This document shows, piece after piece, positions 904 to 62,172 of a stretch of 64,000 nucleotides of DNA (its first letter is position 1; each line of letters begins with the position of its first letter). The position numbers were made by a program, and so were the translations under genes. Under the pieces are notes generated by a model. The model worked only from the letters and a program-made list of their open reading frames with translations. It did no database searches and was not told the DNA's origin. Origin of the DNA: Nonlabens sp. (GTDB lineage Bacteria; Bacteroidota; Bacteroidia; Flavobacteriales; Flavobacteriaceae); the NCBI GenBank assembly GCA_020630715.1, contig JAHDIQ010000010.1:71883-135882 (forward strand). The letters are read 5' to 3'.

Positions 904-3420
904 TTATTCTATAATTTGAATTAATCCAGTAGTACAATCCATGGTTATTTTTTGACCATTATTAAGCCTTTTACAGGCGTTCTTTACATTTATAATTGTT
1001 GGGATATTTAATTCGCGCAGTAGTATTACAGAATGTGATAGCATGGATCCTTTTTCTATAATAACGCCACGACACGCTGGAAATAAAGCGCACCATCCTG
1101 GATCTGTGCGCTGGGCTACGATGATTTTATCTTTCACATCTAGGTTATCTGTAGGATTTGTAATGATGATCACTTCTCCAGTTGCCTCGCCTGGATTACA
1201 GCCTTGACCATTAATGATATCATTTTCTTCCATATCATCACTATGGTGAACTGGTGGATAAGGTTCTATGATGCGTGATTGAGATGCTATAGATTCATAT
1301 CGTTCAAATCTCTTACGCCTAGCTGCAATAATTTCTCGATAGCTAGCATTAGTTCCTTGTACTATTTCCTTTTCTTCTAAATAGAAAATATCTTCTACAC
1401 TATCAATCATATTACTATCTACTAAATAGGAACCATAGCTGCGATATAAAGATCGATACATGCCAAATAATTTTGTGCGGTCCAGTCGTAGACTTTCCCT
1501 GCGTCGTATGCTTTCTTGTAATTTTTTTAATCTTTTGAAAATTAAATATTTAGTATGGAAATTCTTGCCAGATAATTTTTCATTTAATTCAGTTCTCGCT
1601 TTAGTTGATAGCACATTGTCCTGATTGCCTGTAGGTTGATAGCCTAGTAAATTTTTAAGATAACTATAAAAAATAGTTGGTTCCAGGCGCATTGTGATCG
1701 TTTCTAGTTTTAATTCTCCTATGGTACGATCACCGTAGTTTTGTATAAATGTTTCTACTTTTTTAAAAAACGCGGTATGTTGTTCCTTAATTTTTTGATG
1801 TACTGCTGGTTCCTGTTTTTCAATCATCATACATAAAGTACTATTCGCTTGAGCTTCTTGTGCTAGAGATATCATTTCTCTAGTAGGAAATGCGCTTTCA
1901 ATTTCATGATCTCCAGAAAGATAACCAGCGATAAATCCATCTACGTTTTTGATTCCTATACGATGTAGGCTTCTTTTTACCTTGCCATTATCCATCATAA
2001 CCTTAAAATCATTGATAATAGGAACTTCCCAGCGGTGAAGTAATGCATCTAATTGATCGAGTTGTTTCAATAAATCAGACTTTGAGCAACTGTGTTTTGA
2101 TTCCTTGTAAAAGGAATGGTACACCATATCAAATCGTTTTTTAAAACCTACTGTTAATCCATCTAGACGATTGAATTTATATAACAACCTTCCTAGATTA
2201 CGTGCAAGTCCAGGAATCATTTGAATTTTTTCTAGTATACTTTTCTTAGCATCAATTACAAAATCTACCGGTTCTTCCAGTCCCATCATCGCCTCCATAT
2301 CAGCTTTATTTTGTTGAAAGGAAGGAAGTAATTGTAGACCACGATACCAGTTATTGATATTGTAATATATACGTCCATTTTTAAGCGCTAGTAAGTTGTT
2401 AAGTACGTTGTCATAACTTTCAATGGTTCTAGAATTGATTCCTACAGATTTCATAGTCTGTCTATAAACGGTACTATAAGCTCGTGATGCAAATGAAAAC
2501 GTCAGTGGTGTGGTCACTCCACAATAGCTCTCTTGAATATTTGAATTATCGTACACAACGATATCAGGAATTGTGGTAGTGATAGGCCTACGTTGTAGAA
2601 AGTAGAAATGATCATTTTGAATACAGAATTCTATATCACTAGGACCGTAAATGGCTTCAATTTGTTTTGCTTTCGCGAAAGCGAAATCCAACACATCCTC
2701 TGTAATAGATGCTTCATTAATTAGTTTTTCAGGGACTTCTTGCGCTGCTATTTCACCATGATCTGATAGCACTAATTGATTCAGTTTTTCTGCAATAATA
2801 CTGCGATGCATTTTTCCTGAATCCTTCAAATAATAGAATTCATCTGGTGCGACCTCACCATTTACTAGGCTTTCTCCTAGACCGTAGACGCTATGAATTG
2901 CAGTCTCTTGTGGATAAATAGGTGACGTTGTGAAAATCACGCCACTTATAGCTGCGGGAATTTGTTGCTGTATAATAACAGCAGGACGCGCCATAGGGTT
3001 TAGATCATGTTGCTTGCGGTAACTTATAGAACGTTCAGAATAAGCACTCGCGGCGCATTTGATTACCATTTCCTTTAAGACATCATAGTTAGAAACGTTG
3101 AAAAAACTATCCATAAGTCCTGCAAATGAATTCTCAACACCATCTTCATCCATTATAGATGATCGTACAATTACGGGCTGGTTAGGGAAGTTTAAATCCT
3201 TTAAATCATCAAACAGACCTTGCCAGTATTGAGATGGAATTTTTAAATTGAATAAGCGTTCTTTAGCCAATTCTGGACTGTCTAATGATTTTATAGCTGG
3301 CTTAAAGATGTCATAAGGAATGACCTTGAAATCAGGAACCAGTAATCCCATTTCTTTTAATTCAAAAAGGCCACGGGCTTTACCACCCATATTATTATGA
3401 AAGGTGTTTTGATGAATCAT
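904..3420 (-). CDS. PEP-utilising enzyme family protein with an N-terminal PPDK-type ATP-grasp domain and a C-terminal swivelling phosphohistidine domain (rifampicin-phosphotransferase-like architecture, no PEP/pyruvate TIM-barrel domain)
   Basis: 838-aa ORF. N-terminus GGKARGLFELKEMGLLVPDF (PPDK_N-like). C-terminus VAQRTDPGWCALFPACRGVIIEKGSMLSHSVILLRELNIPTI (mobile His domain). Its start overlaps the stop of 3417..4265 in an ATGA overlap. Confidence 0.75.
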   Translation of the reverse strand: MIHQNTFHNNMGGKARGLFELKEMGLLVPDFKVIPYDIFKPAIKSLDSPELAKERLFNLKIPSQYWQGLFDDLKDLNFPNQPVIVRSSIMDEDGVENSFAGLMDSFFNVSNYDVLKEMVIKCAASAYSERSISYRKQHDLNPMARPAVIIQQQIPAAISGVIFTTSPIYPQETAIHSVYGLGESLVNGEVAPDEFYYLKDSGKMHRSIIAEKLNQLVLSDHGEIAAQEVPEKLINEASITEDVLDFAFAKAKQIEAIYGPSDIEFCIQNDHFYFLQRRPITTTIPDIVVYDNSNIQESYCGVTTPLTFSFASRAYSTVYRQTMKSVGINSRTIESYDNVLNNLLALKNGRIYYNINNWYRGLQLLPSFQQNKADMEAMMGLEEPVDFVIDAKKSILEKIQMIPGLARNLGRLLYKFNRLDGLTVGFKKRFDMVYHSFYKESKHSCSKSDLLKQLDQLDALLHRWEVPIINDFKVMMDNGKVKRSLHRIGIKNVDGFIAGYLSGDHEIESAFPTREMISLAQEAQANSTLCMMIEKQEPAVHQKIKEQHTAFFKKVETFIQNYGDRTIGELKLETITMRLEPTIFYSYLKNLLGYQPTGNQDNVLSTKARTELNEKLSGKNFHTKYLIFKRLKKLQESIRRRESLRLDRTKLFGMYRSLYRSYGSYLVDSNMIDSVEDIFYLEEKEIVQGTNASYREIIAARRKRFERYESIASQSRIIEPYPPVHHSDDMEENDIINGQGCNPGEATGEVIIITNPTDNLDVKDKIIVAQRTDPGWCALFPACRGVIIEKGSMLSHSVILLRELNIPTIINVKNACKRLNNGQKITMDCTTGLIQIIE
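2668..2683. repeat. Palindrome family copy 1 (15/16 match; perfect 14-bp core GCTTTCGCGAAAGC)
   Basis: Inside CDS 904..3420. Read on the minus strand as F-A-F-A-K-A. Confidence 0.9.
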
Positions 3421-4265
3421 TTAAGGTTTACTACTATAATGACACTTAAGTAACTCACGATCATAAAGACACTCACAAGTAATTCACCTATACGTAATCC
3501 TTTTTCTTGAGGAACTACTAGATTTCTTAGGTATTGAAAGGCGATACTTAAGTATATGATGCCTATAAAAGCAATCACGATCCAGTGAGCTTCCACTTTT
3601 TCTAACAATAAAAATTGTACAAATAATCCTGCGATTAGAATTACCAGTAGGGTAATAACTGCTGGTTTAAAACCCATAGATTTTGAGTAACTATCCACGC
3701 CATCTCTTTCATCACTAGGCGCATGGATTTTACGAGCGATTTCAAAACTAAAACCAGCCAGTAATGAAGCACCGCATAAATACCATAAAGCATTTGATAA
3801 TTCATAACCAGTGTGCGCTGCATATACCCATAAAATAATAAGTGGCATGATCATCATATGACTTACACCATACAGGATTAACCTACTTTTCAAAAAGGTA
3901 GGTACAAAAAATTCATAGCGCATTAATATGGAATAGGCTACCGCAATTATCCAGCATATCATAGCTGTTTCTCCAGATAGATAAGACCATATAAATTCTA
4001 ATGGGATTAGAGCATAACTAATAAGTTGCAACTGCTTAAGAGTCACACGACCACTTTGTAAAACCCTATGTGGATGGTTTTTACAATCTAAATCATAATC
4101 CTTTATTTCATCAAAGACCCTTAGTCTAAAGAAAAACAAAATCACAACAATAACACCCATAACGATCCACCATAGCGAGTTCACGTAAGAAATTGTTTCA
4201 AAATATGCTGTACCGTTAAGCGCTACTGCTCTTACCGTAAAAAATAGCACTATAAAAAGACCCAT
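3417..4265 (-). CDS. UbiA-superfamily prenyltransferase-like integral membrane protein
   Basis: 282-aa multi-pass hydrophobic ORF. FDEIKDYDLD matches the (N/D)(D/E)xxDxxxD Asp-rich motif and is followed by HRVLQSG (RPLxSG-like). A second acidic motif is SDERDGVDSYS. Confidence 0.6.
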   Translation of the reverse strand: MGLFIVLFFTVRAVALNGTAYFETISYVNSLWWIVMGVIVVILFFFRLRVFDEIKDYDLDCKNHPHRVLQSGRVTLKQLQLISYALIPLEFIWSYLSGETAMICWIIAVAYSILMRYEFFVPTFLKSRLILYGVSHMMIMPLIILWVYAAHTGYELSNALWYLCGASLLAGFSFEIARKIHAPSDERDGVDSYSKSMGFKPAVITLLVILIAGLFVQFLLLEKVEAHWIVIAFIGIIYLSIAFQYLRNLVVPQEKGLRIGELLVSVFMIVSYLSVIIVVNLK

Positions 4266-4467: not shown

Positions 4468-4483
4468 CGCTTTCGCGAAAGCG
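4468..4483. repeat. Palindrome family copy 2 (CGCTTTCGCGAAAGCG, 16/16)
   Basis: Intergenic, 126 nt upstream of the typA ATG. Flanks TTT / TAA. Confidence 0.95.
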
Positions 4484-4608: not shown

Positions 4609-6417
4609 ATGAAAGACATTAGAAACATTGCCATTATTGCCCACGTAGATCACGGGAAAACCACACTAGTAGATAAGATTCTACACCATTGTGAGATATT
4701 TCGTGAGAATGAATCTACGGGAGAATTAATCCTAGATAACAACGATATAGAACGCGAGCGCGGTATTACCATTCTTGCAAAAAACGTATCTGTAAATTAT
4801 AAAGGAACTAAAATTAATATCATCGATACACCTGGTCACGCCGATTTTGGTGGTGAAGTAGAACGTGTATTAAACATGGCAGATGGTGTACTACTTTTAG
4901 TAGATGCATTTGAAGGTCCTATGCCACAAACGCGTTTTGTACTTCAAAAAGCGATCGATTTAGGATTAAAACCATGTGTGGTTGTTAATAAAGTAGATAA
5001 AGAAAACTGTACTCCAGATGAGGTACATGAGTCTGTTTTTGACCTGATGTTTGAACTAGGTGCCGAAGAATGGCAACTGGATTTCCCTACCGTTTATGGT
5101 AGTGCAAAAAATAACTGGATGAGCGATGACTGGAAAGATGAAACAGATAATATTGAGCCATTATTAGATATGGTGATTGAGCATGTTCCTGTTCCTAAAA
5201 TAGAAGAAGGAACTACTCAAATGTTGATCACTTCTTTAGATTTCTCAAACTATACGGGACGTATTGCGATAGGTCGTGTAAAGCGTGGATCACTTAAAGA
5301 AAACCAGCAGGTGACGTTGTGTAAGCGTGATGGATCAATGGAAAAAACACGTGTAAAAGAACTTTTCATTTTTGATGGAATGGGACGTGCAAAAGTGCAA
5401 GAAGTACACGCTGGTGATATTTGTGCCGTAGTAGGATTAGAAGGTTTTGAAATAGGCGATAGTGTCGCAGATTTTGAAAATCCAGAAGCAATGGAAACCA
5501 TCGCGATTGATGAGCCTACCATGAGTATGTTGTTTACGATTAATGATTCTCCATTCTTTGGAAAAGATGGAAAATTTGTGACCTCACGTCATATTAAAGA
5601 TCGTTTAACTAAAGAATTAGAGAAAAACCTAGCGCTACAGGTTCATGAAACAGATAGTGCAGATAAGTTCATGGTTTTTGGTCGTGGTGTATTACACTTA
5701 TCCGTTTTAATTGAAACGATGCGTCGTGAAGGTTATGAATTACAGATAGGTCAACCACAAGTAATCATAAAGGAAGTGGATGGCGTTAAATGTGAACCTA
5801 TTGAAGAATTAACGATTGATTTACCAGAAAGTGTAAGTGGTAAAGCAGTAGAAATGGTTACCATGCGTAAAGGTGAAATGACTAGTATGGCGCCTAAAGG
5901 TGACCGTATGGTTATTGAGTTTAAAATACCGTCACGTGGTATTATAGGATTACGTAATCAGTTAATCACAGCAACTGCTGGTGAGGCGATTATGAATCAC
6001 CGTTTTACAGCGTTTGAACCTTATAAAGGTGATATTCCTGGACGTATAAATGGATCTCTAATCTCTATGGAAAAAGGAACATCGATTCCTTATTCTATGG
6101 ATAAATTACAAGATCGTGGTAAATTCTTTATCTATCCAGGTGAAGAGATTTATGGTGGTCAGGTAGTAGGAGAAAATTCTAGACCAGATGATTTATCAAT
6201 CAATCTTACTAAAACTAAGAAACTTTCAAACGTACGTAGTGCTGGTAACGATGATAAAGTGAAAATCGCACCACCGGTGAAATTCACTCTAGAAGAAGCA
6301 TTAGAATACATTCAAAAAGATGAATACGTTGAAGTAACACCTAATTTCTTACGTCTACGTAAAGTATACTTAGATGAAAATGAACGTAAGCGTAAATCAA
6401 AAGAGTTGGGACAATAA
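4609..6417 (+). CDS. typA: Translational GTPase TypA/BipA
   Basis: 602 aa. N-terminus [40 protein letters not shown]. Full-length EF-G-like domain order typical of BipA. Confidence 0.95.
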
Positions 6418-7837: not shown

Positions 7838-8932
7838 TTGACCATTCCTTACTTACATTTGAAATCCTTGCAGGCTAGATTTAAAGATCAGGATGCGCAA
7901 TCATTACAAGCGATTCAGGAATCTGGACAGTTTATAGGTGGTGATTTTGTGACGACTTTTGAGAATTCTTTTGCCAGTTATTGTGGTGTTCATCATGCAG
8001 TAGGAACAGGAAACGGGCTGGACGCTTTAACCTTAATTCTACTGGCAGAAAAGCAACTGGGCAACTTAACAGAACATGCTAAAATACTTCTACCAGCGCA
8101 TACCTATATCGCAACGTTTTTAAGTGTTATTCACGCTGGTATGCAACCTATTCCTGTGGATGTTTCAGATCTTACGATTTCAGTTCCAGACCTAGAAAAT
8201 CATACAAATGGTATCGATGCTATAGTTGTCGTGGATATTTATGGAAAGCTGGTGGATGATGAGGTTTACGCTTTCGCGAAAGCGAAACAATTACCCATAT
8301 ATTGCGATACAGCACAATCTCACGGCGCAAGAAACTCTAGTGGAAAACGCTCTGGAAGTCTAGCACGAGCCAGTGCTTTTTCATTCTATCCTACAAAAAA
8401 TTTAGGAGCATTAGGCGATGGTGGCGCCGTAACTTCAGATGATTCTGAACTAGCAAGCATGGTGCGCAAACTGGCAAACTACGGCCGTGAAAGCAGATTT
8501 GTAAATAGCGTCATAGGAATGAACTCGCGTTTAGATCCATTACAAGCGTCGTTTTTATCCAGTAGACTACAACAATTAGATGCAGATTATCAATGTAGAT
8601 ACGACATCGCGAGAAGTTATGTAAATGGGATAAAAAATGAGTTAGTTACCGTTCCAGAACCATCGTTTTTTGAACACAACGCGATTCATGTATTTCCTGT
8701 ATTTGTAGAACATCGTGATAGATTTGTGACGTATATGAATCGTTGCGGTATAGGAACAAATTGTCATTATCCTGTCGCACCGCACTCGCAAGAAGCGTTG
8801 TCCTTTTTAAATCACCTATCGTTTTCTAATACAGAAAAATTCCATCGTACTGAGGTGAGTATTCCATGTCATCCATTACTATCTAGTGATGAGGTGCAGT
8901 ATGTTATCCATTCCATAAACAATTATGAATGA
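7838..8932 (+). CDS. DegT/DnrJ/EryC1/StrS-family PLP aminotransferase (WecE/RffA-like sugar 4-aminotransferase)
   Basis: 364 aa. FSFYPTKNLGALGDGGA (contains the PLP lysine), DTAQSHGA. TTG start in the track. Contains palindrome copy 8269..8284. Confidence 0.85.
   Translation: MTIPYLHLKSLQARFKDQDAQSLQAIQESGQFIGGDFVTTFENSFASYCGVHHAVGTGNGLDALTLILLAEKQLGNLTEHAKILLPAHTYIATFLSVIHAGMQPIPVDVSDLTISVPDLENHTNGIDAIVVVDIYGKLVDDEVYAFAKAKQLPIYCDTAQSHGARNSSGKRSGSLARASAFSFYPTKNLGALGDGGAVTSDDSELASMVRKLANYGRESRFVNSVIGMNSRLDPLQASFLSSRLQQLDADYQCRYDIARSYVNGIKNELVTVPEPSFFEHNAIHVFPVFVEHRDRFVTYMNRCGIGTNCHYPVAPHSQEALSFLNHLSFSNTEKFHRTEVSIPCHPLLSSDEVQYVIHSINNYE
8269..8284. repeat. Palindrome family copy 3 (16/16)
   Basis: Inside the DegT aminotransferase CDS. 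Read as Y-A-F-A-K-A-K. Confidence 0.95.
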
Positions 8933-10215
8933 AGCTGTTTGATCGATGGAATAACAACGTCATTTTAAAACTAGCTAGTTTTAATAGCATTCATATCGTT
9001 ATTAAATTAGTGTTAGGTGCCGTAATGTCTAAGGTTATTGCCATCTATGCTGGTACTGCCGGAATCGCGTTAATGGGGAATTTACAAAACGTTCTTCAAG
9101 GCACGCAAACCTTTGCTGTTTTAGGTCAACAACATGGGATTGTAACCTACACCTCGCAGTATCGAGATGATCATGGGAATTTGAAAATTCATTTATCCAC
9201 CGCATGGGTAATGGCACTGATCGCTGGAATTACGGTTGCGATTATAGTGTTTTTTACGGCTGGATGGATCTCACAATATTTATTTGATCAGGATTATAAT
9301 AATGTGATTAGACTGCTCGCTATATCATTACCATTTTTTATCATATACACCTTTATAAGTGGTCTTTTACAAGGATTTGAACGGTATAAAAAGTATGTGC
9401 TCTTACAGATTATAGTTTCTGTGATTGTGTTTTGTATCGCTACGTATTTATTAATTCAGTATGAGGTTTCTGGTGCTTTATATGGTATTGTAATAACACC
9501 TATTCTCCAGTCATTAATAGCTGTGGTGTTATTGAAAAACGCTTTGCCAGATGTGTCTTTACAAAACCTGATTAGCTTTAAATACGATCCTACAGTAGCT
9601 AGAAAGTTTTTAAAGTATAGTGCGATGGCATTAGTGAGTGCCTTACTATTACCAGCGGTAATGATTGTAGTAAGAACCTTTTTAATGGAGCAGTCTGGTG
9701 ATGATGATGCTGGTTGCTGGCAGGCGATGATGCGCATTTCTGGTTACTATATGATGTTTAGTACTACCTTAATTGCGATGTACGTATTGCCTAGTTTAAG
9801 CAGGGAATCTAGTTATAATAACTTTAGAAAAACCACATTCCAATTTTTAAAAACCATATTACCATTGATTTTAGTAGGAATGATTATGGTTTATCTATTT
9901 AGAGATTTCATTATATCATTTCTCTTTACAGCAGATTTTAAAGGAATGCATCCCTTATTTAAATGGCAATTACTAGGAGATTTTATAAAGGTGATCACTA
10001 CGGTGCTCGCCTTTGAATTTGTAGCGCGCAATGACATTAAAAGATACCTCATTGCAGAGTTGATTAGCATTGCAAGCTTCTACGCGTTAAGTCATTATTT
10101 AATCCCAGAAAATGGAGCGGTAGGAGCAGTGCAGGCTCACTTTATCACCTATATCATTTACTTAATAGTACTAGTAGTCTTACTACGTAAAGAATTGTTT
10201 AGTAAAACAGCTTAA
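8929..10215 (+). CDS. Wzx-type polysaccharide/O-antigen flippase (MOP superfamily)
   Basis: 428 aa with about 12 TM segments. ATGA start/stop overlap with the aminotransferase gene. Confidence 0.75.
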   Translation: MKLFDRWNNNVILKLASFNSIHIVIKLVLGAVMSKVIAIYAGTAGIALMGNLQNVLQGTQTFAVLGQQHGIVTYTSQYRDDHGNLKIHLSTAWVMALIAGITVAIIVFFTAGWISQYLFDQDYNNVIRLLAISLPFFIIYTFISGLLQGFERYKKYVLLQIIVSVIVFCIATYLLIQYEVSGALYGIVITPILQSLIAVVLLKNALPDVSLQNLISFKYDPTVARKFLKYSAMALVSALLLPAVMIVVRTFLMEQSGDDDAGCWQAMMRISGYYMMFSTTLIAMYVLPSLSRESSYNNFRKTTFQFLKTILPLILVGMIMVYLFRDFIISFLFTADFKGMHPLFKWQLLGDFIKVITTVLAFEFVARNDIKRYLIAELISIASFYALSHYLIPENGAVGAVQAHFITYIIYLIVLVVLLRKELFSKTA

Positions 10216-11096: not shown

Positions 11097-11112
11097 CGCT
11101 TTCGCGAAAGCG
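11097..11112. repeat. Palindrome family copy 4 (16/16)
   Basis: Intergenic, 24 nt upstream of the exonuclease ATG at 11136. Confidence 0.95.
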
Positions 11113-11982: not shown

Positions 11983-12016
11983 TTGATATATCATGTTGAG
12001 TTTTTAGTTACATTTG
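11983..12016 (+). promoter_or_regulatory. Candidate promoter of the regulator gene (TTG at 11983-11985, -7 box TACATTTG at 12009-12016)
   Basis: Exact TAnnTTTG match. The TTG lies 23 nt upstream, slightly wider than the usual spacing. Confidence 0.3.
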
Positions 12017-14824
12017 AGAAACTCAACGATCTTGAAAAACCTAAACTTTTTATTCATTCTTATAGGTTTCTTTTTTCATTGCCATGCGCAAGAGTTACCA
12101 CCTACACAGTATTTTAATCCATCAGTCTATGAGGCTGGTAATCAAAACTGGATGATCGCAGAATCTGATGATCATCAAATTTATATAGCTAATAATAAAG
12201 GATTGTTAGTCTACAATGGAGCTCAGTGGAATCTCTATAAAACTCCTAATGAAAGCATCATGCGATCTGTAAAAATTGATGGTGATCGTGTTTATACAGG
12301 ATGTTATATGGATTTTGGTTACTGGGAAGCAAATGCTACTGGTAGGTTGTCCTATACATCAATTCTGGAACAAACTGGGTTTAGTGTTGAGGAAGATGAA
12401 CAATTCTGGAACATATCTGTTCAGGAGGATTATGTGCTTTTCCAGTCGTTATCCCATATTTATCTGTATGATAAAGAGAAAAATACTATTTCTCCTATCG
12501 TTCAGGATGTGACTATTCATAAATTCTTTACCGTAGAAAGTTCTTTTTATTATCAGGTATTAGGTGAAGGTTTGTATCAAGTTTCAAACGGTAATTCCCA
12601 ATTACTTAGTAGTCAGTCAATTATTAAGGATAAGCCAGTAGTTCATATGTTTGAGCAAAATGGGATGATTTATGTCGTTACAGAGGATTCGGCAATTTAT
12701 GCTCTTAAAGATGATAATGTATCATTGACTAGTAAGTTACAGTTTGATAAACCGGTAACTCTATATAGTGCAGAAGCCTTAGATGATGGGTCTTTATTAT
12801 TAGGAACCATATCCAGTGGCGTCATATCTTCAAATTTAGACGGTAGTGTTAATTACAGCATTAATCAGAATAGTGGATTGGGCAATAATACCTGTCTTTC
12901 TGTTTTTCAGGACAGTAAGAATAATATTTGGTTAGGACTAGATAACGGTTTGAGTTGTGTGAATCAAGATTCATCGTATTTGTTCTATAGAGATCGAGAC
13001 GGTAGTTTAGGAACCGTTTACGCATCTGCAAAATTTGAAAACAAAGTCTTTATAGGAACAAACCAAGGGCTGTTTTCAAAAAATGTCAACGAGAAAGAGT
13101 TTAATTTTATAGAAGGAAGTGCTGGACAAGTATGGTCATTAGATGTGATTGATAATACATTATTTTGCAGTCATAACCTAGGTCTATTTGCACTAGTAAA
13201 TGATCGTTTAGAGTTAGTACATAATACAGGTTCATGGCAAGTTCAGTCTGTACCTGGTAAAATAAATAGTGTACTAGTAGGATCTTATAAAGGCCTTTAT
13301 TTAATAGAGAAAAGAAATAATAGGTGGCAGTTTGAAACTTATGTAGAAGGTTTTAATATCAGTTCAAAGGATGTGGTTATTGAAAGTGATCAAACGGTAT
13401 ATGTAAACCATGAATATAAAGGTGTATTTAAATTAATACTGAATGACTCTTTAAATAAAGTGGTTACGAGTTCTGTAGTTGCTGAATTGCATAAAGGAAT
13501 AGGAAGTGATATGGCCTTATATGACGATGTGTTGTTTTATGCAAAACGAGATACCGTTTTCACAAAAAGCCGTTCTTCTGCTACATTTAGTTATGACCCA
13601 TTACTGAGTGAGCTTTTTAAATCTTCAGAATATACCTCAGGAAGCCTTGAAGTTTCTGGTAATTATTTATGGTGTTTTAATACTAATTACATTCATAGAA
13701 TTGAGTTTGAGGATATCAACGGAGATTATAAGATTAAAAAAATTAAGTATCCTAAAGTAGTAAGAAAGGAAAATACAGGTTATGAGAATTTAACCATGAT
13801 GACTCCTAAAACCTACTTGATAGGATCGTCCTTTGGTTACTCACTATTTGACGACTCTAAGGGTAATTTTGAAGAAGATTTAAACGTTTTTATTTCTAGT
13901 GCTAGTCATATAAAAGAGAATGATTTAAAAACGCTATCCCTTACAGAACCCGTAACTATAGATTACGAGGGAAGTAATATTCAAATTTCATATGCTGTAA
14001 ATAATTATGACGCCACGCGTGTAGTAGAATATCAGCATCAATTATTGAAAAATGATAAAGTAGTTAGTGGCTGGAGCGATTTGACAACTAGCAATACTGT
14101 ATCCTTTGAAAGTTTGCGTTTTGGTGATTATGAATTTGAGGTGCGTTTTAAGAAAATAGATGAGTCACTAAGTGATCCGGCAAGCTATTCATTTACCATA
14201 GGAAGACCTTATTATCTTACTAATACTGCGATCGTTATTTATATTATTCTTACGATACTGCTAGTTGCATTATTGAATGGCTTTTACATCTGGTACTTTA
14301 AGCGACAAAAGAAAAGAGCCCTACAAAAACAGCAAAAAGAATTAGAGTTGCAAAACCTTACTAATGAAAAGAATATCATTGAACTGCGTAATGCAAAACT
14401 ACGCAGTGATATAGAACATAGAAACAGAGAACTTGCCGTTTCAACCATGGCAATGATTAGAAAGAATGAAACTTTAAATGAGTTGAAGAACGAGTTACAA
14501 AAACTCCCTAAAGACAATGCAACCTCTTCACTTAAGAAAATGCTGGATAAAAATTTAAACAGCAAGCAGGATTGGATCACTTTTGAGGAAGCATTTAATA
14601 ATGCAGACAAGGATTTCTTTAAAAAGATCAAGGAGAAACATCCGTCTCTTTCTTCTGGCGATCTCAGACTATGTGTTTATTTAAGATTGAACTTATCATC
14701 AAAAGAAATTGCACCGCTTCTTAATATTTCTCCTAGAAGTGTAGAGATAAAGCGATATCGTTTGCGTAAAAAACTAGGTTTAACGCGTAATGATAGCCTT
14801 ACCAGTTACATTGTTGAGATTTAA
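12014..14824 (+). CDS. One-component transmembrane regulator: periplasmic beta-propeller-type sensor repeats + Y_Y_Y region + TM helix + coiled coil + C-terminal LuxR-type HTH
   Basis: 936 aa. Signal peptide, long repeat-rich sensor, TM segment TAIVIYIILTILLVALLNGFYIWYF, C-terminal LSSGDLRLCVYLRLNLSSKEIAPLLNISPRSVEIKRYRLRKKLGL. No kinase or receiver motifs seen. The start is ambiguous: the TTG at 12014 overlaps the putative -7 box, and the TTG at 12032 would give MKNLNFLFIL... Confidence 0.8.
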   Translation: MRNSTILKNLNFLFILIGFFFHCHAQELPPTQYFNPSVYEAGNQNWMIAESDDHQIYIANNKGLLVYNGAQWNLYKTPNESIMRSVKIDGDRVYTGCYMDFGYWEANATGRLSYTSILEQTGFSVEEDEQFWNISVQEDYVLFQSLSHIYLYDKEKNTISPIVQDVTIHKFFTVESSFYYQVLGEGLYQVSNGNSQLLSSQSIIKDKPVVHMFEQNGMIYVVTEDSAIYALKDDNVSLTSKLQFDKPVTLYSAEALDDGSLLLGTISSGVISSNLDGSVNYSINQNSGLGNNTCLSVFQDSKNNIWLGLDNGLSCVNQDSSYLFYRDRDGSLGTVYASAKFENKVFIGTNQGLFSKNVNEKEFNFIEGSAGQVWSLDVIDNTLFCSHNLGLFALVNDRLELVHNTGSWQVQSVPGKINSVLVGSYKGLYLIEKRNNRWQFETYVEGFNISSKDVVIESDQTVYVNHEYKGVFKLILNDSLNKVVTSSVVAELHKGIGSDMALYDDVLFYAKRDTVFTKSRSSATFSYDPLLSELFKSSEYTSGSLEVSGNYLWCFNTNYIHRIEFEDINGDYKIKKIKYPKVVRKENTGYENLTMMTPKTYLIGSSFGYSLFDDSKGNFEEDLNVFISSASHIKENDLKTLSLTEPVTIDYEGSNIQISYAVNNYDATRVVEYQHQLLKNDKVVSGWSDLTTSNTVSFESLRFGDYEFEVRFKKIDESLSDPASYSFTIGRPYYLTNTAIVIYIILTILLVALLNGFYIWYFKRQKKRALQKQQKELELQNLTNEKNIIELRNAKLRSDIEHRNRELAVSTMAMIRKNETLNELKNELQKLPKDNATSSLKKMLDKNLNSKQDWITFEEAFNNADKDFFKKIKEKHPSLSSGDLRLCVYLRLNLSSKEIAPLLNISPRSVEIKRYRLRKKLGLTRNDSLTSYIVEI

Positions 14825-14944: not shown

Positions 14945-14960
14945 CGCTTTTGCGAAAGCG
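14945..14960. repeat. Palindrome family copy 5 (15/16: CGCTTTTGCGAAAGCG)
   Basis: Intergenic, 146 nt upstream of the 15106 ATG. Confidence 0.85.
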
Positions 14961-18100: not shown

Positions 18101-18288
18101 TTCTACCTAGCACTCGTATAGGTCTAAGAGGAACCTTTAGAGGTTTAAATGAGTTCTCTCCTAGATTTGCGCCTGCTTCAATTCCTGCAGGTACATTTCC
18201 AGCGATTAACCCAGGAAGTGCCGTAGGATTCCCTAACGGATCTGAATGGGAAATCAGAACCTATGTTCACATAAATATTGGTCAATAA
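15106..18288 (+). CDS. Secreted fusion protein: N-terminal clan GH-A (GH2-C / GH158 / GH72-like) TIM-barrel glycosidase-like domain + ~620-aa beta-barrel-like C-terminal region
   Basis: 1060 aa. Signal peptide MKKILLTVIVTLITSTFVLGQ. LTVDGKPFMINGMNW, NVNVIRVY, MLGNENNYG (acid/base-like NE, ~15604-15618), MFSEFGSDAF (nucleophile-like E, ~15910-15924), FQFSDGWW. The C-terminal part is rich in alternating-hydrophobic strands (AKFAMNLGFVYRH, FKLETHARF, EWEIRTYVHINIGQ at the terminus). Confidence 0.6.
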   Translation: MKKILLTVIVTLITSTFVLGQSQNVKVVQNASGHTLTVDGKPFMINGMNWDYIPVGANYSYDFWSKSDTFIKAALDSEMSLLQNMNVNVIRVYTGIQPKWVEYIYEKYGIYTMLNHSFGRYGLTLDGVWIPNTEYSNPAARKFLLAEATKMVNDFKDTPGLLMFMLGNENNYGLSWGGAATEDIPIETEGTVITRARAMYKVMNEATLAMKKIDSSHPIAICNGDLLYLDLVKEHCPDIDIYATNMYRGVSFGDAFQRVADELEKPIMFSEFGSDAFNALSMKEDQKMQSYYVVNNWKEIYANAAGLGKANNSIGGFTFQFSDGWWKVGQTKDLDIHNSDAVWTSGGYTLDTENGSKNMNEEYFGICAKGKSDARGLYTLYPRAAYYALKDVHSLNPYGAGIDAAFVDNYFDGINLMEYVLQARGDKAAAGTGGDGEMLRISNLSARFTTFNTGGTLITTPDNQDPTANITPNQLGFDHMQSYFVGVEGKPAANMRAKVDLNITGNVAQNPIDEIFYENRARPVIVEGANGEDVTLIDNNRLQVYQAEFEWNAKEFDLRGFYRTGHYHWGYEGDFFNLYPEANYGPNLDIYGGEILGAEIDGKGVFQGLKAAVGPQLWWGANPTMLFKYRKQIGKWDVAGIYHRDFDRNTEFDPITGARVIDPVQARSGIIPPWATERATLAIQRDFGKFGIMVGGIWGGSPLNGLAYQDFTGESGNYTVFEDRINSNDNWGGKVKLTYEGGRFNWYGQASAMGLVANGGADQTQTFTGWRLKDSGSGNMTNVLSGFTYSMGDLQIAPNFMWQKPLVDAIPNDIDGPGRLRNVIDDPFAVRNGNREMTAGEILLTYDPTPGTWMYQWDNDRAEDAKFAMNLGFVYRHLPTNMDAHIGFLADRTFFAFPTAAPAEDLWEINSRMVSKLNPELGLIANMYYGNGQANGDSDRTITRYGGDVRAIYKNFKLETHARFNDWGPFDYHRDFNLTFPYQFMLDISTSLGKPDWFILPSTRIGLRGTFRGLNEFSPRFAPASIPAGTFPAINPGSAVGFPNGSEWEIRTYVHINIGQ

Positions 18289-18291
18289 AAG

Positions 18292-19764: not shown

Positions 19765-19790
19765 AAATAAAGATTTAAAAACGTATTAGA

Positions 19791-20648: not shown

Positions 20649-20692
20649 CAACCACAATTGATGATTTCAATCATTTATTTAAAGAACTTATA

Positions 20693-25139: not shown

Positions 25140-25151
25140 TCGGGTTGTAAT

Positions 25152-42764: not shown

Positions 42765-42788
42765 ATTTCGCTTTCGCGAAAGCGAAAT
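42765..42788. repeat. Palindrome family copy 11 (perfect 24-bp palindrome ATTTCGCTTTCGCGAAAGCGAAAT)
   Basis: In the divergent intergenic region between 41623..42711 (-) and the aconitase gene (+). Confidence 0.95.
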
Positions 42789-47814: not shown

Positions 47815-47849
47815 AAAAAAGGCCTTAGATTTCTCTAAGACCTTTTAAG
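47815..47849 (-). terminator. Rho-independent terminator of tRNA-His
   Basis: On the minus strand: AAGGTCTTAGA-GAA-ATCTAAGGCCTT hairpin (one G-U pair) followed by TTTTTT, directly after the tRNA 3' end. Confidence 0.8.
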
Positions 47850-47924
47850 GGTGGAAGATCGGTTTCGAACCGACGACCTCCTGAACCACAATCAGGCGCT
47901 CTAACCAGCTGAGCTACAACCACC
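47850..47924 (-). tRNA. tRNA-His (anticodon GTG), with an encoded G-1
   Basis: Hand-folded cloverleaf. D arm GCTC-AGCTGGTTA-GAGC. Anticodon arm CCTGA-TTGTGGT-TCAGG. T arm GTCGG-TTCGAAA-CCGAT. G-1 lies opposite C73. No CCA is encoded. The acceptor stem as read has two T-T mismatches (5:68 and 6:67). Confidence 0.8.
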
Positions 47925-48030: not shown

Positions 48031-48747
48031 TTATTTCAAATCAAAAATACTTTCTACCGCAGGATAACGCTCTGCTATAAATCCTTCTCCATATTCCGTG
48101 CCTATATAACGTCCCATATTTGCAGCACGATACTTTATAGAATCAAAGAAATTTTTATTACTAATAGGTGTTTGAGGCTCATCAGAATCTGGATCAAAAA
48201 ACTGTGAGCTATAAGCTTTTACAGATTCTATTTTTAGGTCCATGTAACCTGTAATATCCACGATGAAATCTGGTTCCATATCCTGCCATTGTATATAGTG
48301 ATAGACATGCTTAGGTCTACAGGCTTCTTGTGGTTTACCGTCTAGGGTTGTTACTATCTTAGGTAAACCGGATAGAAAACATGCTTTACTGGTAAGTTTG
48401 CTGCCTTTTCCATGATCTGGATGGCGATCATACACTGCATTGCACAATACAATTTCTGGTCTGTATTTACGGATACGCTTAATGATTTCTAGCTGGTGCG
48501 CTTCATCATCTATAAAAAAACCATCCTTAAAAGATAGGTTTTCACGAACTGATAAATTTAAGATTGCAGCCGCCTTTGCAGCTTCTTGATCTCGAATTGT
48601 AGCACTGCCTCGTGTTCCTAATTCACCTCTGGTAAGATCTAAAACGCCTGTTTTTTTTCCTGCTGCTGCTTCTTTGGCCAGTACGCCACTACAACTTAAT
48701 TCTACATCATCAGGATGTGCGCCTATGGCTAGTATGTCTAATTTCAT
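48031..48747 (-). CDS. bshB1: Bacillithiol biosynthesis deacetylase BshB1 (LmbE/PIG-L family)
   Basis: 238 aa. ILAIGAHPDDVELSCSG, HPDHGK. Typical BshB1 length. Confidence 0.8.
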   Translation of the reverse strand: MKLDILAIGAHPDDVELSCSGVLAKEAAAGKKTGVLDLTRGELGTRGSATIRDQEAAKAAAILNLSVRENLSFKDGFFIDDEAHQLEIIKRIRKYRPEIVLCNAVYDRHPDHGKGSKLTSKACFLSGLPKIVTTLDGKPQEACRPKHVYHYIQWQDMEPDFIVDITGYMDLKIESVKAYSSQFFDPDSDEPQTPISNKNFFDSIKYRAANMGRYIGTEYGEGFIAERYPAVESIFDLK

Positions 48748-49907
48748 GAATCTAAAGTATTACTTTTTTTAATGGCGCGTTTGATATCTGCCTTTAAAAC
48801 ACTCACTTCTTCTATCCCTACTGAAAATCGTAACAGTCTGTCAGAGATTCCTTGATCTGTTCGTTGATCTGCGGTTAATAAACTGTGTGACGTTACTGCT
48901 GGTGCTAGAATGGTGCTTTCTACACCAGCAAGACTTAAGGCTACTTTTATGGTTTTTAAGTGACTTACAAATTGCTCATGATTGATACTCTTATCCAGTT
49001 CAAAGGATAACATTCCACCATAGTCATTCATCTGTTTTTTGGCCAGTTTGTGATCTGGATGTGATTTTAAACCTGGATAATTCACTTGTGTTACCTGTGG
49101 ATGTTTCTCAAGGAATTTAGCTAGTTTTTTAGCGTTTTTAGTTTGTCGCTGTACGCGCAATCCTAGTGTTTTTATACTGCGTTCCAGCATCCATGCAGTT
49201 TGGTCACTTATGCTTCCGCCGTAGTTTTTTGCTGTTTTCCAGATGTGATGGATGTAATCCTTACTAGCGCAAACTACACCAGCAGTGATGTCACTGTGAC
49301 CACCTAAATATTTTGTAGCACTATGAATGACTAGGTCTATGCCATGATCTGCAGGATTTTGATTGATAGGTGACGCAAATGTGTTGTCTATTGCGGTGAT
49401 GATGGATTTCGCTTTCGCGAAAGCGGAAACACCACCAATATCAGTAATTTTAAGCAACGGATTACTAGGAGTTTCTATGTAGATCATTTTGGTGTGATCC
49501 GTACAAGATTGAGCAAGCGTTTCTTCATTAATGTCTGAAAGAAAAGTGTAATTGATTCCGGTTTTTTCAAACTCGGCAGTTACAAAATGGCTGGTGCCGC
49601 CATAAATAGATTCTTGTAAAATGATATGATCGCCCGTTTTAAGGTAGGTCATAAAAACCGCGCTGATTGCGGCCATACCACTGGCAAAAATTAATCCAGC
49701 TTCCGTATGTTCTAGAGCAGCCATTTTTTGTGCTAGCGCTACCTGATTAGGCGTATTCATATATCGCGGATACAGGTTAGTTCCATCACTACGATAGTCA
49801 TAAGCTGTTGAGGTATAGATAGGTGCCGTCGCGCCACCGTAAATAGGATCTTTTAATTCGCCAGCATGAACACACGTGGTATGAATGGATCTTTTCTTTG
49901 AACTCAT
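48744..49907 (-). CDS. PLP-dependent trans-sulfuration enzyme (cystathionine gamma-synthase / beta-lyase / methionine gamma-lyase family)
   Basis: 387 aa. IHSATKYLGGHSD (PLP lysine), DNTFASP. 4-nt overlap with bshB1. Contains palindrome copy 49410..49425. Confidence 0.85.
   Translation of the reverse strand: MSSKKRSIHTTCVHAGELKDPIYGGATAPIYTSTAYDYRSDGTNLYPRYMNTPNQVALAQKMAALEHTEAGLIFASGMAAISAVFMTYLKTGDHIILQESIYGGTSHFVTAEFEKTGINYTFLSDINEETLAQSCTDHTKMIYIETPSNPLLKITDIGGVSAFAKAKSIITAIDNTFASPINQNPADHGIDLVIHSATKYLGGHSDITAGVVCASKDYIHHIWKTAKNYGGSISDQTAWMLERSIKTLGLRVQRQTKNAKKLAKFLEKHPQVTQVNYPGLKSHPDHKLAKKQMNDYGGMLSFELDKSINHEQFVSHLKTIKVALSLAGVESTILAPAVTSHSLLTADQRTDQGISDRLLRFSVGIEEVSVLKADIKRAIKKSNTLDS
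49410..49425. repeat. Palindrome family copy 12 (16/16)
   Basis: Inside the trans-sulfuration enzyme CDS. Read on the minus strand as S-A-F-A-K-A-K. Confidence 0.95.
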
Positions 49908-55590: not shown

Positions 55591-55612
55591 TTACGCTTTC
55601 GCGAAAGCGTAA
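55591..55612. repeat. Palindrome family copy 13 (perfect 22-bp palindrome)
   Basis: Intergenic, 3 nt downstream of the stop of 55615..56016 and 86 nt upstream of the start of 54936..55505. Confidence 0.95.
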
Positions 55613-55614: not shown

Positions 55615-56016
55615 CTAACCAAAAAACACTTCATGAAGATACCTACCAGGACTTAAGGTAAAACCACCGGCGATCATAATTGCGCCTACATAAAGCATGA
55701 TCATTTTAATCTTATGACGTCGTATTTGCCCTTTTTTAACAGCAATTAGCGCTGTAGGAATAGAATATAAAGTAAGGAAACTGAATAAATGAATCCATCC
55801 AAAGTGACCCAGAAATTGCGGTCCTACTAAGGCTGGTAAAAATAAAGATGCGATTGCGGTAAACATCATTAATGACATATAGATTTTACCTAATAGTTTA
55901 TGTATACGGTCACCTTTTCTAAATAGTAATAAATAAGCGCCTAGAAATATACATGGTACCACAGTTGCAAGATGTGAATACATGATGATGTTGTATGTGG
56001 AACTGTATAAGGCCAT
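55615..56016 (-). CDS. Four-TM membrane protein, family unassigned
   Basis: 133-aa hydrophobic ORF. Confidence 0.5.
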   Translation of the reverse strand: MALYSSTYNIIMYSHLATVVPCIFLGAYLLLFRKGDRIHKLLGKIYMSLMMFTAIASLFLPALVGPQFLGHFGWIHLFSFLTLYSIPTALIAVKKGQIRRHKIKMIMLYVGAIMIAGGFTLSPGRYLHEVFFG

Positions 56017-58940: not shown

Positions 58941-59065
58941 ATTATTATGACTTAATCTGTTATGTAAATAGCCAACGTTCACGATTCTCGCCAGAGGTTG
59001 AATTTTACGAGGTGCAAAAATACAAACTTATCAGTATGCTACAAAGATTTATAGAATAAAATATC

Positions 59066-61182: not shown

Positions 61183-62172
61183 ATGAAGCTTAAAATTACA
61201 CTATTTTGTTGTTGTCTCGCTTTCGCGAAAGCGGAATTATCAACAGCCCAAGTCGGTTTAAACGAAGCATTAACAGATCTGGTCTTGATCTCTGATCGAT
61301 ATGTGGAAACTGCGGCCGAAGCATCTGTCATGCAATCCAGTGCTGGATGGTACAACAGCGCAAAAACACTCGATAAATTTAAGTATACACTAGCATTTCA
61401 TGCTAATGGATTAGCCTTTCCAGACAGCAAAATGTCATTTGATATTAGTAATGAGGAACTGAGTAATGTGACCATACGCGGTGCAGAGACTGCTACCGTT
61501 CCTACCGCTTTGGGTAATAGAGATGTGACTTTTTTTGACTTTATGATTGATGGCGATTCTTACGAGTTTCAAGCGTTTACAGGTATTGATACTGGTTTTT
61601 TAGCTTATCCTTTCTTGCAAGGTAAAGTAGGCTTATGGCAAGAGACAGAGCTTACCTTGCGTTACTCACCACGCATTAAAATAGACAAATCCAGATATGC
61701 GATTTATGGCGTAGGCTTACAACATAATCTATCGCAATACCTTTTTAAAGAGAAACGACCTGTAGAAATTGCAGTGCTAGGAAGTTATTCTTTATTTGAT
61801 CTAGACTTAGGATTTGATTCTTATGCCGTACGATCTGATGCTAACAGTGCACCGCTGGCAGTAATTGACAGCTCAGTGCTGGATGCGCATGCGATATTAT
61901 TACAATTAATCGCTAGTAAGGATTATGAGAACTGGACCTTTAGCACTGGAGTAGGTTATAACCGCAGTTGGATCGATTATGAATTAGGTGGTGAAGATGG
62001 TTTTTTTCTGGATGTTCTTAATGAATTCCTCACCGTATTAAGTGAACGTCAGGATAGTTATAAAGCAGATTTAGGTGCGACGTATCATTTTACAAATTGG
62101 GATTTAAACACACAATTAAGTGTAGGTAATTTTGTAAATCTAAACATAGGTGCTATTTACAGGCTCAACTAG
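61183..62172 (+). CDS. Secreted, probably outer-membrane beta-barrel protein, unassigned
   Basis: 329 aa. Signal peptide ...CCCLAFAKA, which holds palindrome copy 61218..61233. Alternating-hydrophobic strands. C-terminus NLNIGAIYRLN. Confidence 0.5.
   Translation: MKLKITLFCCCLAFAKAELSTAQVGLNEALTDLVLISDRYVETAAEASVMQSSAGWYNSAKTLDKFKYTLAFHANGLAFPDSKMSFDISNEELSNVTIRGAETATVPTALGNRDVTFFDFMIDGDSYEFQAFTGIDTGFLAYPFLQGKVGLWQETELTLRYSPRIKIDKSRYAIYGVGLQHNLSQYLFKEKRPVEIAVLGSYSLFDLDLGFDSYAVRSDANSAPLAVIDSSVLDAHAILLQLIASKDYENWTFSTGVGYNRSWIDYELGGEDGFFLDVLNEFLTVLSERQDSYKADLGATYHFTNWDLNTQLSVGNFVNLNIGAIYRLN
61218..61233. repeat. Palindrome family copy 14 (16/16)
   Basis: Inside the signal-peptide codons of 61183..62172 (L-A-F-A-K-A-E). 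Confidence 0.95.

Follow-up and report, generated by a model that had tools for sequence, protein, structure and literature searches.

Introduction

In published uptake sequences, 65%, 49%, and 34.5% of the copies lie in ORFs, where they show a reading-frame bias and fall at poorly conserved residues (PMC2817400). HIP1 (GCGATCGC), a highly iterated palindrome of cyanobacteria whose function was long unknown, is now linked to transformation (PMC4390886; 10.1101/2024.09.10.611283; 10.64898/2026.06.24.733823). It is the one other hyper-abundant palindrome besides that described here, is conserved and quasi-periodic, reportedly enhances natural transformation, and has been proposed to be an uptake or Chi-like signal (10.1101/2024.09.10.611283; 10.64898/2026.06.24.733823). 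Natural competence with a preference for own DNA occurs in Riemerella columbina, a member of the class Flavobacteriia (PMC7965970). For Nonlabens and Dokdonia, we found no competence or DNA-uptake data in the literature.

Here we analysed a window of 64,000 nt from Nonlabens sp. (GCA_020630715.1, contig JAHDIQ010000010.1, positions 71,883-135,882) that carries dispersed copies of CGCTTTCGCGAAAGCG, a perfect 16-bp palindrome of which no earlier description was found in the literature. Its recurrence about every 4 kb, in genes as well as between them, in the marine genera Nonlabens and Dokdonia, and its conservation at the DNA level give it the look of a "self-DNA" recognition word not described before, similar to HIP1 or to DNA uptake sequences.

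Copies of the palindrome in the window

The window contained 12 exact copies and two copies with one mismatch (2668, TGCTTTCGCGAAAGCG; 14945, C7 to T), and all 14 positions reported in the preliminary description were correct. No copies with two or three mismatches were present in the window, so the family is sharp. In 100 dinucleotide-preserving shuffles of the window, there were no matches at ≤2 mismatches, compared with 14 in the real sequence. With a window G+C of 0.33-0.38, the earlier expected count of ~2e-6 for the 16-mer is of the right order. The presumed functional core of the 16-mer is GCTTTCGCGAAAGC.

Seven copies are coding. The one-mismatch copy at 2668-2683 lies within a PPDK_N-domain ORF (904-3420, minus strand; frame A-F-A-K-A-K), and exact copies at 8269-8284 and 49410-49425 lie within a DegT/DnrJ aminotransferase ORF (7838-8932, plus strand; A-F-A-K-A) and a Cys/Met-metabolism PLP enzyme ORF (48744-49907, minus strand; S-A-F-A-K-A), respectively. 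Two further exact copies encode the ends of signal peptides: 39166-39181 in a PPIase ORF (39107-40567, plus strand; ...CFAFAKA/IPAQ) and 61218-61233 in a DUF6588 ORF (61183-62172, plus strand; ...CCCLAFAKA/ELS). The frame R-F-R-E-S is used by the 22-bp palindrome at 27889-27910 (exact core 27892-27907), within the Glyco_hydro_30C domain of ORF 26473-27969 (plus strand), and by the exact copy at 35912-35927 in ORF 35721-36203 (minus strand), which has a weak SRPBCC/Polyketide_cyc2 match.

The other seven copies are intergenic. Divergent spacers hold the exact copy at 4468-4483, between ORF 3417-4265 (minus strand) and bipA/typA (4609-6417, plus strand), and the 24-bp palindrome at 42765-42788 (exact core 42769-42784), between ORF 41623-42711 (minus strand) and the aconitase gene (43028-45301, plus strand). 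Tandem spacers hold the exact copy at 21584-21599, 114 nt after a PKD-domain ORF and 69 nt before ORF 21669-25139, and the perfect 26-bp palindrome at 25152-25177 (exact core 25157-25172), with a stop codon 17 nt before it and the next ATG 32 nt after it. The exact copy at 11097-11112 is 23 nt upstream of the ATG at 11136, probably the true start of an RNase_T exonuclease gene; the one-mismatch copy at 14945-14960 lies between ORFs 12014-14824 and 15106-18288; and the 22-bp palindrome at 55591-55612 (exact core 55594-55609) is 5 nt downstream of the stop of a DUF2306 gene (55615-56016, minus strand). The four extended palindromes agree with those first described, and so does the even split between coding and intergenic copies.

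Placement relative to genes

Intergenic DNA is indeed the small minority that it had been taken for, with 5.2 kb (8%) of the annotated span non-coding. The seven spacer copies therein, against seven in 57.7 kb of coding DNA, amount to a ~11-fold enrichment of the motif in spacers. In a larger set of 157 copies, 57-69% were located in ORFs, most often in the frames AFAKA (60), RFRES (20), and LSRKR (10). The spacers bearing the motif (47 tandem, 12 divergent, and 8 convergent) mirror the proportions among all spacers (307, 80, and 60), which shows that motif placement is independent of transcription-unit geometry. An operator reading was rejected.

Spacer enrichment, short palindromic form, and high copy number are shared with REP, BIME, REPIN, and MITE elements, and the palindrome can fold, with energies of -5 to -13 kcal/mol. 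It might thus be a structural hairpin: an intrinsic terminator, an mRNA stabiliser, a RAYT-mobilised REP/REPIN, a MITE, or an in-frame insert like the Rickettsia palindromic element. However, convergent or tandem spacers are not preferred, no U/T run follows the hairpin, where the flank is instead A/C-rich, and no Rfam family matches the motif. Copies do not form clusters or inverted pairs (2 of 78 gaps in tiles were <850 bp), have no conserved flanking tetranucleotide, and show neither terminal inverted repeats nor target-site duplications. Moreover, half of the copies lie within genes, where no indels set them apart from outgroup sequences. A hairpin element of any kind, be it a REP, a MITE, or a terminator, is therefore highly improbable and in effect already refuted.

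Origin and conservation of copies

The gene of the Cys/Met enzyme illustrates how coding copies arise. About 58 orthologues from the Nonlabens clade have SAFAKA at the motif site, and outgroup enzymes have A[EK][LI]AK[EK]HG at this position with unchanged length. Because the coding copies show no indels relative to outgroup orthologues, they arise by point substitution and not by insertion. In a codon alignment of this gene from six genomes, only 25 of 200 codons for invariant residues were identical in all six and synonymous sites were nearly saturated, yet apart from the 14-nt core the gene had no invariant stretch of ≥8 nt.

Three syntenic sites are common to the window and a second locus (L188), and all three are kept at a flank identity of 72-74%. 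The sites at 8269 and 11097 retain 15 of 16 bases in L188 (at 13893 and 16713, respectively, the latter between diverged flanks), and the counterpart of the one-mismatch copy at 14945 is an exact 16-mer (20570). The intergenic site 3' of the DUF2306 gene was kept in four of four genomes compared, with an orthologous site in three Nonlabens genomes. Both coding and intergenic copies are thus maintained at orthologous positions despite the near-saturation of neutral sites.

Spacing and density

Copies are more evenly spaced than expected by chance. In five pooled loci (149 kb), the minimum gap between copies was 933 bp (P = 5e-5) and the spacing was even by a test of the coefficient of variation (CV; P = 0.006); in the window alone, the gap CV was 0.42 (P = 0.0007). 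The density was ~1 per 4 kb in every sample from the Nonlabens clade. The samples came from widely differing parts of the chromosome (0.11 Mb of 3.9 Mb, 1.64 Mb of 3.25 Mb, and 2.47 Mb of 2.87 Mb), and their density extrapolates to ~700-900 sites per genome.

Even spacing with a minimum gap of ~0.9 kb would suit a chromosome-organising or nucleoid-associated dimeric protein that binds the sites and structures or partitions the chromosome, ordinary purifying selection keeping the sites. The arrays of Noc-NBS, SlmA-SBS, MatP-matS, and ParB-parS are comparable: they consist of 12-16-bp perfect palindromes implying a dimeric reader, and their sites are tolerated in genes and conserved between species. 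Some NBS, SBS, and parS sites likewise fall within genes. However, these systems have tens of sites within one chromosomal domain, whereas the motif, by extrapolation, is roughly ten times more numerous and is not limited to one domain in the available samples. Its TTTC/GAAA half-sites are 2 bp apart, in contrast to 4 bp in the parS and NBS consensus sequences. We consider such an array the chief alternative to the reading favoured below, possible albeit doubtful.

Distribution among clades and phages

A genome scan for the motif was dominated by Dokdonia, Nonlabens, and uncultured Flavobacteriaceae, and no copies were found in Christiangramia, Winogradskyella, Aquimarina aquimarini, Neptunitalea, or five other marine contigs. 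The motif is thus confined to one clade of Nonlabens, Dokdonia, and uncultured relatives; the possibility that related genera share it, raised at the outset, is borne out, and outgroups lack it.

The isolated Nonlabens phages P12024S and P12024L had no copies at ≤3 mismatches, compared with ~8 expected in each at host density. This absence is compatible with a site array as well as with a tag of resident DNA. However, at least one genuine phage contig (portal, terminase, and sheath) carried six copies in 37 kb. Such a host-like density in some phages speaks against a site array; a tag restricted to "self" DNA would not predict it either, except in a temperate phage that has resided in the host for long.

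Flanking sequences

Each half-site is accompanied by an 18-nt flank that is C-poor and G/T-rich, with T at every third base. The signal is degenerate but highly significant over ~18 nt per side, and it follows the motif rather than the reading frame. The earlier statement that the flanks share nothing beyond about 26 bp was therefore wrong. The proposed extension of all seven intergenic copies to TTW-core-WAA applies to six; the exception is 14945, with TTA on its 3' side. The flanks form no stem, as complementarity between the two arms of a copy does not extend past -3. Together with the indel-free coding copies, the absence of clusters, and the clade-limited range, this bears out the first structural interpretation as a short genome-signature word rather than a REP, a MITE, or an IS end.

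A flank preference of ~18 bp per half-site might reflect the large footprint or wrapped complex of an array-binding protein, but wrapping of double-stranded DNA would predict a helical repeat of ~10.5 bp, not 3-bp phasing. Keto-rich, C-poor tracts with 3-nt phasing lie 5' of the core on both strands, and RecA binds triplets and prefers GT-rich DNA. The motif could accordingly be a bidirectional Chi-like recombination hotspot or self-marker, read from either side by a RecBCD/AddAB-type enzyme, with the 5' flank as a RecA-loading tract. Its density is similar to that of E. coli Chi (~1 per 4.5 kb), and it is present in some phages, as if protecting against host nuclease, and missing from others. 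A Chi-like action has also been suggested for HIP1 (10.1101/2024.09.10.611283). However, a 16-bp palindrome is unprecedented for Chi and far beyond the needed length, and none of the present results connects the motif with a nuclease. The Chi sites known to us are all short (5-8 nt) and asymmetric, with a strand bias that follows replication. We regard this reading as improbable.

Comparison with HIP1 and uptake sequences

Like HIP1, the motif is palindromic, centred on CpG, hyper-abundant in genes and spacers, conserved, and quasi-periodic (10.64898/2026.06.24.733823; PMC4390886). Unlike HIP1, it is twice as long (16 vs 8 bp), has extended asymmetric half-site flanks, is limited to a few genera rather than phylum-wide, and has no known cognate methyltransferase; it also appears much less dense. 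The shared traits raise the possibility of a HIP1-like palindrome with a link to DNA methylation or repair: its CGCG or TCGCGA centre would be the target of an orphan methyltransferase, and methylation-linked repair or gene-conversion bias would create and preserve copies with epigenetic or repair functions. Strong avoidance of another palindrome, TTCGAA (1 observed vs 18 expected), does point to active restriction-modification pressure on palindromes in this lineage. However, TCGCGA outside the motif occurs at expectation (7 vs 4.9), with no sign of special pressure on the hexamer. Methyltransferase targets of 4-8 bp alone would not keep 14-16 bp and 18-nt flanks invariant, and no methyltransferase was identified. 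This explanation is unlikely.

The motif resembles USS of Pasteurellaceae and DUS of Neisseriaceae in being a clade-specific word of very high copy number that lies in coding and spacer DNA, is enriched in spacers, has a strong reading-frame bias, and falls at poorly conserved residues (PMC2817400). It is likewise born by substitution, stable at orthologous positions, and missing from unrelated DNA. However, it is a perfect 14-16-bp palindrome in contrast to asymmetric 9-12-mers, its density is 3-4 times lower (~1 per 4 kb vs ~1 per kb), and its flank is triplet-phased and G/T-rich where USS and DUS have helically phased AT tracts. The host belongs to the Bacteroidota, and uptake is only a candidate role there, as is the binding of a dimeric global protein, proposed alongside it in the preliminary description; no competence genes were found among the annotated ORFs of the window. 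Several considerations count against uptake. To our knowledge, all proven uptake sequences are 9-12-nt words without symmetry; a perfect 16-bp palindrome classically points to a cytoplasmic helix-turn-helix protein that binds as a dimer; and in large marine populations, weak selection could suffice to keep hundreds of binding sites without any drive. The published behaviour of uptake sequences nevertheless fits the motif in several respects.

On balance, we tentatively favour a symmetric site that is recognised at the DNA level and labels resident DNA, with uptake or recombination as the most plausible setting. Its perfect two-fold symmetry suggests that it would be read by a dimeric sequence-specific DNA-binding protein, and, more speculatively, RecA or another ssDNA filament that reads triplets might load on the keto-rich, triplet-phased tract 5' of the core on both strands. 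Molecular drive through biased uptake or recombination, weak selection on individual sites, or the two together would maintain the copies. In its most likely role, the 16-mer would let resident DNA be recognised as "self" when these bacteria take up DNA or recombine it by homology, and may act much as uptake sequences do in Pasteurellaceae and Neisseriaceae and as is currently proposed for HIP1.

Copy number and distribution of the motif

The window contained 12 exact copies of the 16-bp palindrome CGCTTTCGCGAAAGCG and two copies with one mismatch (2668 and 14945; copies are named by their start coordinates), in agreement with the 14 copies and coordinates of the preliminary description. The over-representation claimed there was also borne out, since no match with up to two mismatches occurred in 100 dinucleotide-preserving shuffles of the window, whose G+C content is 0.33-0.38. 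The motif family is very sharp, with no window copies at two or three mismatches and one at four, and the extended palindromes of 26, 24 and 22 bp exist as first described. ORF, Pfam and frame analysis upheld the reported split into seven coding copies (2668, 8269, 27892, 35912, 39166, 49410 and 61218) and seven intergenic copies. Non-coding sequence makes up 5.2 kb of the 62.9 kb annotated span, and the motif density was 1 per 0.74 kb in spacers versus 1 per 8.2 kb in genes, an approximately 11-fold enrichment of spacers.

The window's coding copies all lie in frame, encoding A-F-A-K-A in five of the seven and R-F-R-E-S in the other two, and copies 39166 and 61218 encode the A-x-A end of signal peptides. 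A combined set of 157 exact copies was drawn from the window and loci of Dokdonia, Nonlabens and uncultured Flavobacteriaceae. Long ORFs held 57-69% of these copies, and the leading frames were AFAKA (60 copies), RFRES (20) and LSRKR (10).

Taxonomic range

Scanning one genome from each species yielded at least 119 motif-bearing stretches. Among the matches listed, the great majority belonged to Dokdonia, Nonlabens and uncultured Flavobacteriaceae, at one to three copies per 8-kb tile, and a few singletons came from unrelated high-G+C taxa, consistent with chance. Samples from six genomes (171 kb) contained 44 copies with at most one mismatch, approximately 1 per 4 kb, at far-apart chromosome positions. 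The 21-kb samples retrieved via orthologous genes had three to eight such copies in every genome of the Nonlabens clade (L180, L181, L182, L187 and L188). Densities were similar at 0.11 of 3.9 Mb, 1.64 of 3.25 Mb, 2.47 of 2.87 Mb and 0.18 of 2.85 Mb, and motif-bearing tiles were scattered over the Dokdonia chromosomes (3.3-3.4 Mb). This distribution bears on the possibility that the motif forms the site array of a chromosome-organising protein. Arrays of the parS, NBS, SBS or matS type comprise tens of sites within one chromosomal domain (ori, Ter or non-Ter). The symmetry of the motif is compatible with a cognate dimeric protein, but the copies in the sampled loci are not restricted to such a domain. 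We rank this explanation second and consider it rather unlikely.

No copies with up to two mismatches were found in the sampled loci of Christiangramia, Winogradskyella, Aquimarina aquimarini and Neptunitalea or in five other marine contigs, and no alternative repeated 12-mer that could serve as a "dialect" was detected in Christiangramia, Winogradskyella or the five marine contigs. Sharing with related genera, a question raised in the preliminary description, thus extends to Nonlabens, Dokdonia and uncultured relatives, with zero copies in the four outgroup genera. A metagenome scan for loci orthologous to the gene of the Cys/Met PLP enzyme, which carries copy 49410, recovered only relatives of ~40% identity; these were motif-free and were used as negative controls.

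The proteins of the window are nearest to those of Nonlabens, with BipA 94% identical to that of Nonlabens ponticola and an identity of about 73% for the Cys/Met enzyme. In N. ponticola (L182, CP034549), most copies retain the 14-nt core and carry A or T at position 1, position 16 or both (e.g., AGCTTTCGCGAAAGCT), which may reflect a "dialect" of this species or looser requirements at the outer positions. It should be noted that one contig labelled "uncultured Aquimarina sp." (L069) shows 100% identity to CP050461.1, a genome of the Nonlabens clade (cf. L187), in the sequence surrounding its motif copy. Because of this match, and because the genuine Aquimarina aquimarini lacks the motif, the label is probably a mis-assignment.

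Origin and conservation of the copies

Copy 49410 encodes SAFAKA in about 58 Nonlabens-clade orthologues of the Cys/Met enzyme, and outgroup orthologues (60% identity) have A[EK][LI]AK[EK]HG at the same place with unchanged length. The lack of a length change indicates that this copy came about through substitution rather than insertion, in a helix with little sequence conservation. Synonymous sites were nearly saturated in a codon alignment of the gene from six genomes, where identical codons were used at only 25 of 200 invariant degenerate residues, and the 14-nt core GCTTTCGCGAAAGC was the sole invariant run of 8 nt or longer.

Similar conservation was seen between the window and L188, its closest relative found. 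All three syntenic sites (one coding and two intergenic) are kept with zero or one mismatch each in flanking DNA of 72-74% identity, and in the spacers the core forms an island of identity amid divergence and indels. The window shares with three Nonlabens genomes the spacer site that directly follows the DUF2306 gene. Downstream of rplS, three genomes have a conserved site that the window lacks, so copies undergo some turnover. The motif is thus a recognition word at the DNA level, made by substitution, kept against mutational saturation and restricted to one clade, in which its copies are evenly spaced.

BipA of L188 is 98% identical to that of the window. In L188, Bac_rhodopsin and carotenoid-cleavage (BCD) genes (8216-8968) lie directly upstream of bipA. 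The window carries different genes there, and synteny breaks exactly at the spacer of copy 4468.

Flanking sequences and secondary structure

The statement in the preliminary description that the flanks share nothing beyond about 26 bp proved wrong. Within the ~18 nt that precede the core on either strand (5' side), the C content drops to 6-7.5%, versus 16-18% at 30-60 nt (P = 6e-25 for intergenic and 6e-51 for coding copies), and G and T are enriched across the same stretch. Furthermore, T shows maxima at positions -3, -6, -9 and -12 (0.57 versus 0.36-0.39 elsewhere; P = 1e-8 and 2e-21, respectively). Spacers and all three reading frames show this 3-nt phasing, so it is anchored to the motif and not to codons, and a codon artefact was rejected as its source. 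Such a triplet-phased flank resembles the likely preference of triplet-reading ssDNA filaments such as RecA. Both the core and the flank preferences are almost identical between Dokdonia and Nonlabens. The E. coli Chi octamer GCTGGTGG lies inside the 5' flank of copy 8269 (window 8249-8256), probably by chance, given the preference of the flanks for G and T. That the motif as a whole acts as a Chi-like marker appears improbable.

The flanks, G/T-rich on the left and A/C-rich on the right, had suggested a long imperfect stem or terminal inverted repeat. This candidate was dismissed by a permutation test, in which complementarity between the two arms of a copy did not exceed that between arms taken from different copies beyond position -3; the flank therefore represents a half-site preference, neither a stem nor a terminal inverted repeat. 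The palindrome itself folds at -5 to -13 kcal/mol and has no U run after it. An insert of the MITE or RPE-like type is contradicted by the lack of complementarity and by the length of the Cys/Met enzyme, which is the same as in the outgroups, and the earlier view of a short motif rather than a MITE or IS end is upheld on these grounds. We consider a hairpin or mobile element extremely unlikely. An Rfam scan of the window detected only a tRNA-His(GTG) gene (47849-47923, minus strand) and the L19-Flavobacteria ribosomal-protein leader upstream of rplS (58973-59000, minus strand), with no match at the motif.

Spacing and gene context

The window copies are more evenly spaced than expected by chance, with a gap CV of 0.42 (P = 0.0007) and a minimum gap of 1800 bp (P = 0.002). 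When five unbiased loci were pooled, the minimum gap was 933 bp (P = 5e-5). This gap and the coding position of 7 of the 14 copies argue against RAYT-associated REP/REPIN elements, which are strictly extragenic, occur in clusters or inverted pairs and consist of an imperfect palindrome with a conserved 5' tetranucleotide.

Motif-bearing spacers were tandem, divergent and convergent in 47, 12 and 8 cases, the same proportions as among all spacers (307, 80 and 60), which argues against a terminator or operator role and rules out a terminator-like or promoter-like placement. An intrinsic terminator is further contradicted by the A/C-rich 3' flank and by the half of the copies that lie inside ORFs. 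The placement of the motif is indifferent to transcription geometry. Together, substitution origin, conservation, even spacing and transcription-blind placement exclude REP/REPIN elements, MITE or RPE-like inserts, intrinsic terminators and ordinary operators.

The gene content of the window is that of an ordinary chromosome, with housekeeping genes and a cluster for utilisation of beta-glucan (laminarin-type; 15106-31224), and no competence gene was found among the annotated ORFs. The cluster includes GH2-like, GH16, PKD-domain and GH30 genes, three GH17 domains and an MFS-GH17 fusion, with four motif copies inside or beside it. A SusC/SusD identity for the ORFs at 15106-19764 was wrong, as one encodes a GH2-like protein and the other is unassigned. 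No Pfam match was obtained for the ORFs at 21669-25139 (1156 aa) and 18292-19764.

Phages and other palindromes

Two isolated phages of Nonlabens, P12024S and P12024L, each 35.7 kb long, contained no copies with up to three mismatches, where ~8 per phage would be expected at host density, although their host strain may itself lack the motif. In IMG/VR, the motif was found in 42 stretches. Among them, IMGVR_UViG_3300040781_000495 (37 kb; L141, L158 and L161), with a G+C content of 0.42-0.48, is a genuine tailed-phage contig encoding portal, large terminase, major head, tail sheath and baseplate hub proteins, and it carries six exact copies. One of these sits at the 3' terminus of the portal ORF, where it overlaps the beginning of the following ORF, and another in the terminase gene; related contigs from other samples keep the same sites. 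In addition, a family of low-G+C viral contigs has three to four conserved motif sites in common. The motif is thus missing from some phages and near host density in others, and the motif-rich phages are perhaps long-resident temperate elements.

Other palindromes also deviated from expectation. TTCGAA occurred once in 64 kb (47864-47869, inside the tRNA-His gene), versus 18.2 ± 4.1 expected, and once per 35.7-kb Nonlabens phage, which looks like restriction-site avoidance (BstBI/AsuII-type) common to host and phage. GTCGAC was absent from the window, versus 4.3 expected. With the motif masked, CpG-rich palindromes were still in excess (CGCGCG 7 versus 1.5, CGTACG 10 versus 3.5 and GCGCGC 6 versus 2.2). 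TCGCGA outside the motif was at expectation in the window, and restriction avoidance of TCGCGA is accordingly unsupported.

Relation to known systems and possible roles

In the literature searched, no paper contained the 16-mer or described an iterated palindrome or uptake sequence in Nonlabens, Dokdonia or other Flavobacteriaceae. We classified the motif with iterated genome-signature words such as USS and DUS, the uptake sequences of Pasteurellaceae and Neisseriaceae, and the cyanobacterial palindrome HIP1, from which it is set apart by its length, symmetry, flank architecture and host phylum. It resembles uptake sequences in being enriched in spacers, biased in reading frame, placed at residues of low conservation, created by substitution, stable at orthologous sites and restricted to certain taxa (PMC2817400; PMC3630211). 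Like HIP-type palindromes, it is palindromic, conserved and far above expectation in both genes and spacers. That it is a methylation-linked element of the HIP kind seems unlikely. HIP1 is likewise conserved and quasi-periodic; recent work reports that it increases natural transformation, and an uptake or Chi-like function has been suggested for it (10.1101/2024.09.10.611283; 10.64898/2026.06.24.733823). The related Riemerella columbina, of the same class as Nonlabens, shows natural competence with a preference for self DNA, no recognition motif being reported (PMC7965970).

Given these parallels, we rank first, tentatively, the reading of the motif as a self-DNA tag in uptake or recombination. 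Counted against it are the palindromic form, typical of cytoplasmic dimeric binders, a density below that of USS and DUS, the presence of the motif in some phages and a triplet-phased flank that this reading leaves without explanation; in addition, no report of natural competence in Nonlabens or Dokdonia was found in the literature searched.

From the two-fold symmetry, we infer that the motif would be read by a dimeric protein. Such a receptor would recognise the palindromic 14-16-bp word, and the triplet-phased G/T-rich tracts on both strands would link this recognition to the loading of a recombinase filament. Uptake specificity and Chi-like stimulation of recombination would then be combined in one symmetric element, which would be the first signal for sequence-specific DNA uptake or self-recognition outside Proteobacteria and a second, independent invention of the possible role of HIP1. 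We regard this combined mechanism as speculative and unlikely.

To our knowledge, hyper-abundant genome words with a proven function are limited to two proteobacterial families, and HIP1, the sole palindromic case, has been without explanation for three decades. The motif described here is a second, unrelated and much longer palindromic word with clear conservation at the DNA level, and it provides an independent and directly testable system. Dokdonia and Nonlabens are culturable and ecologically important marine Flavobacteriaceae that serve as model proteorhodopsin bacteria and polysaccharide degraders. The motif may be useful as a clade-diagnostic marker for binning and for host assignment of marine contigs and prophages, and as a candidate sequence in DNA constructs for better transformation of poorly tractable members of the clade. 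It would imply a novel sequence-specific protein machine in this clade that may act in uptake, recombination or chromosome organisation.
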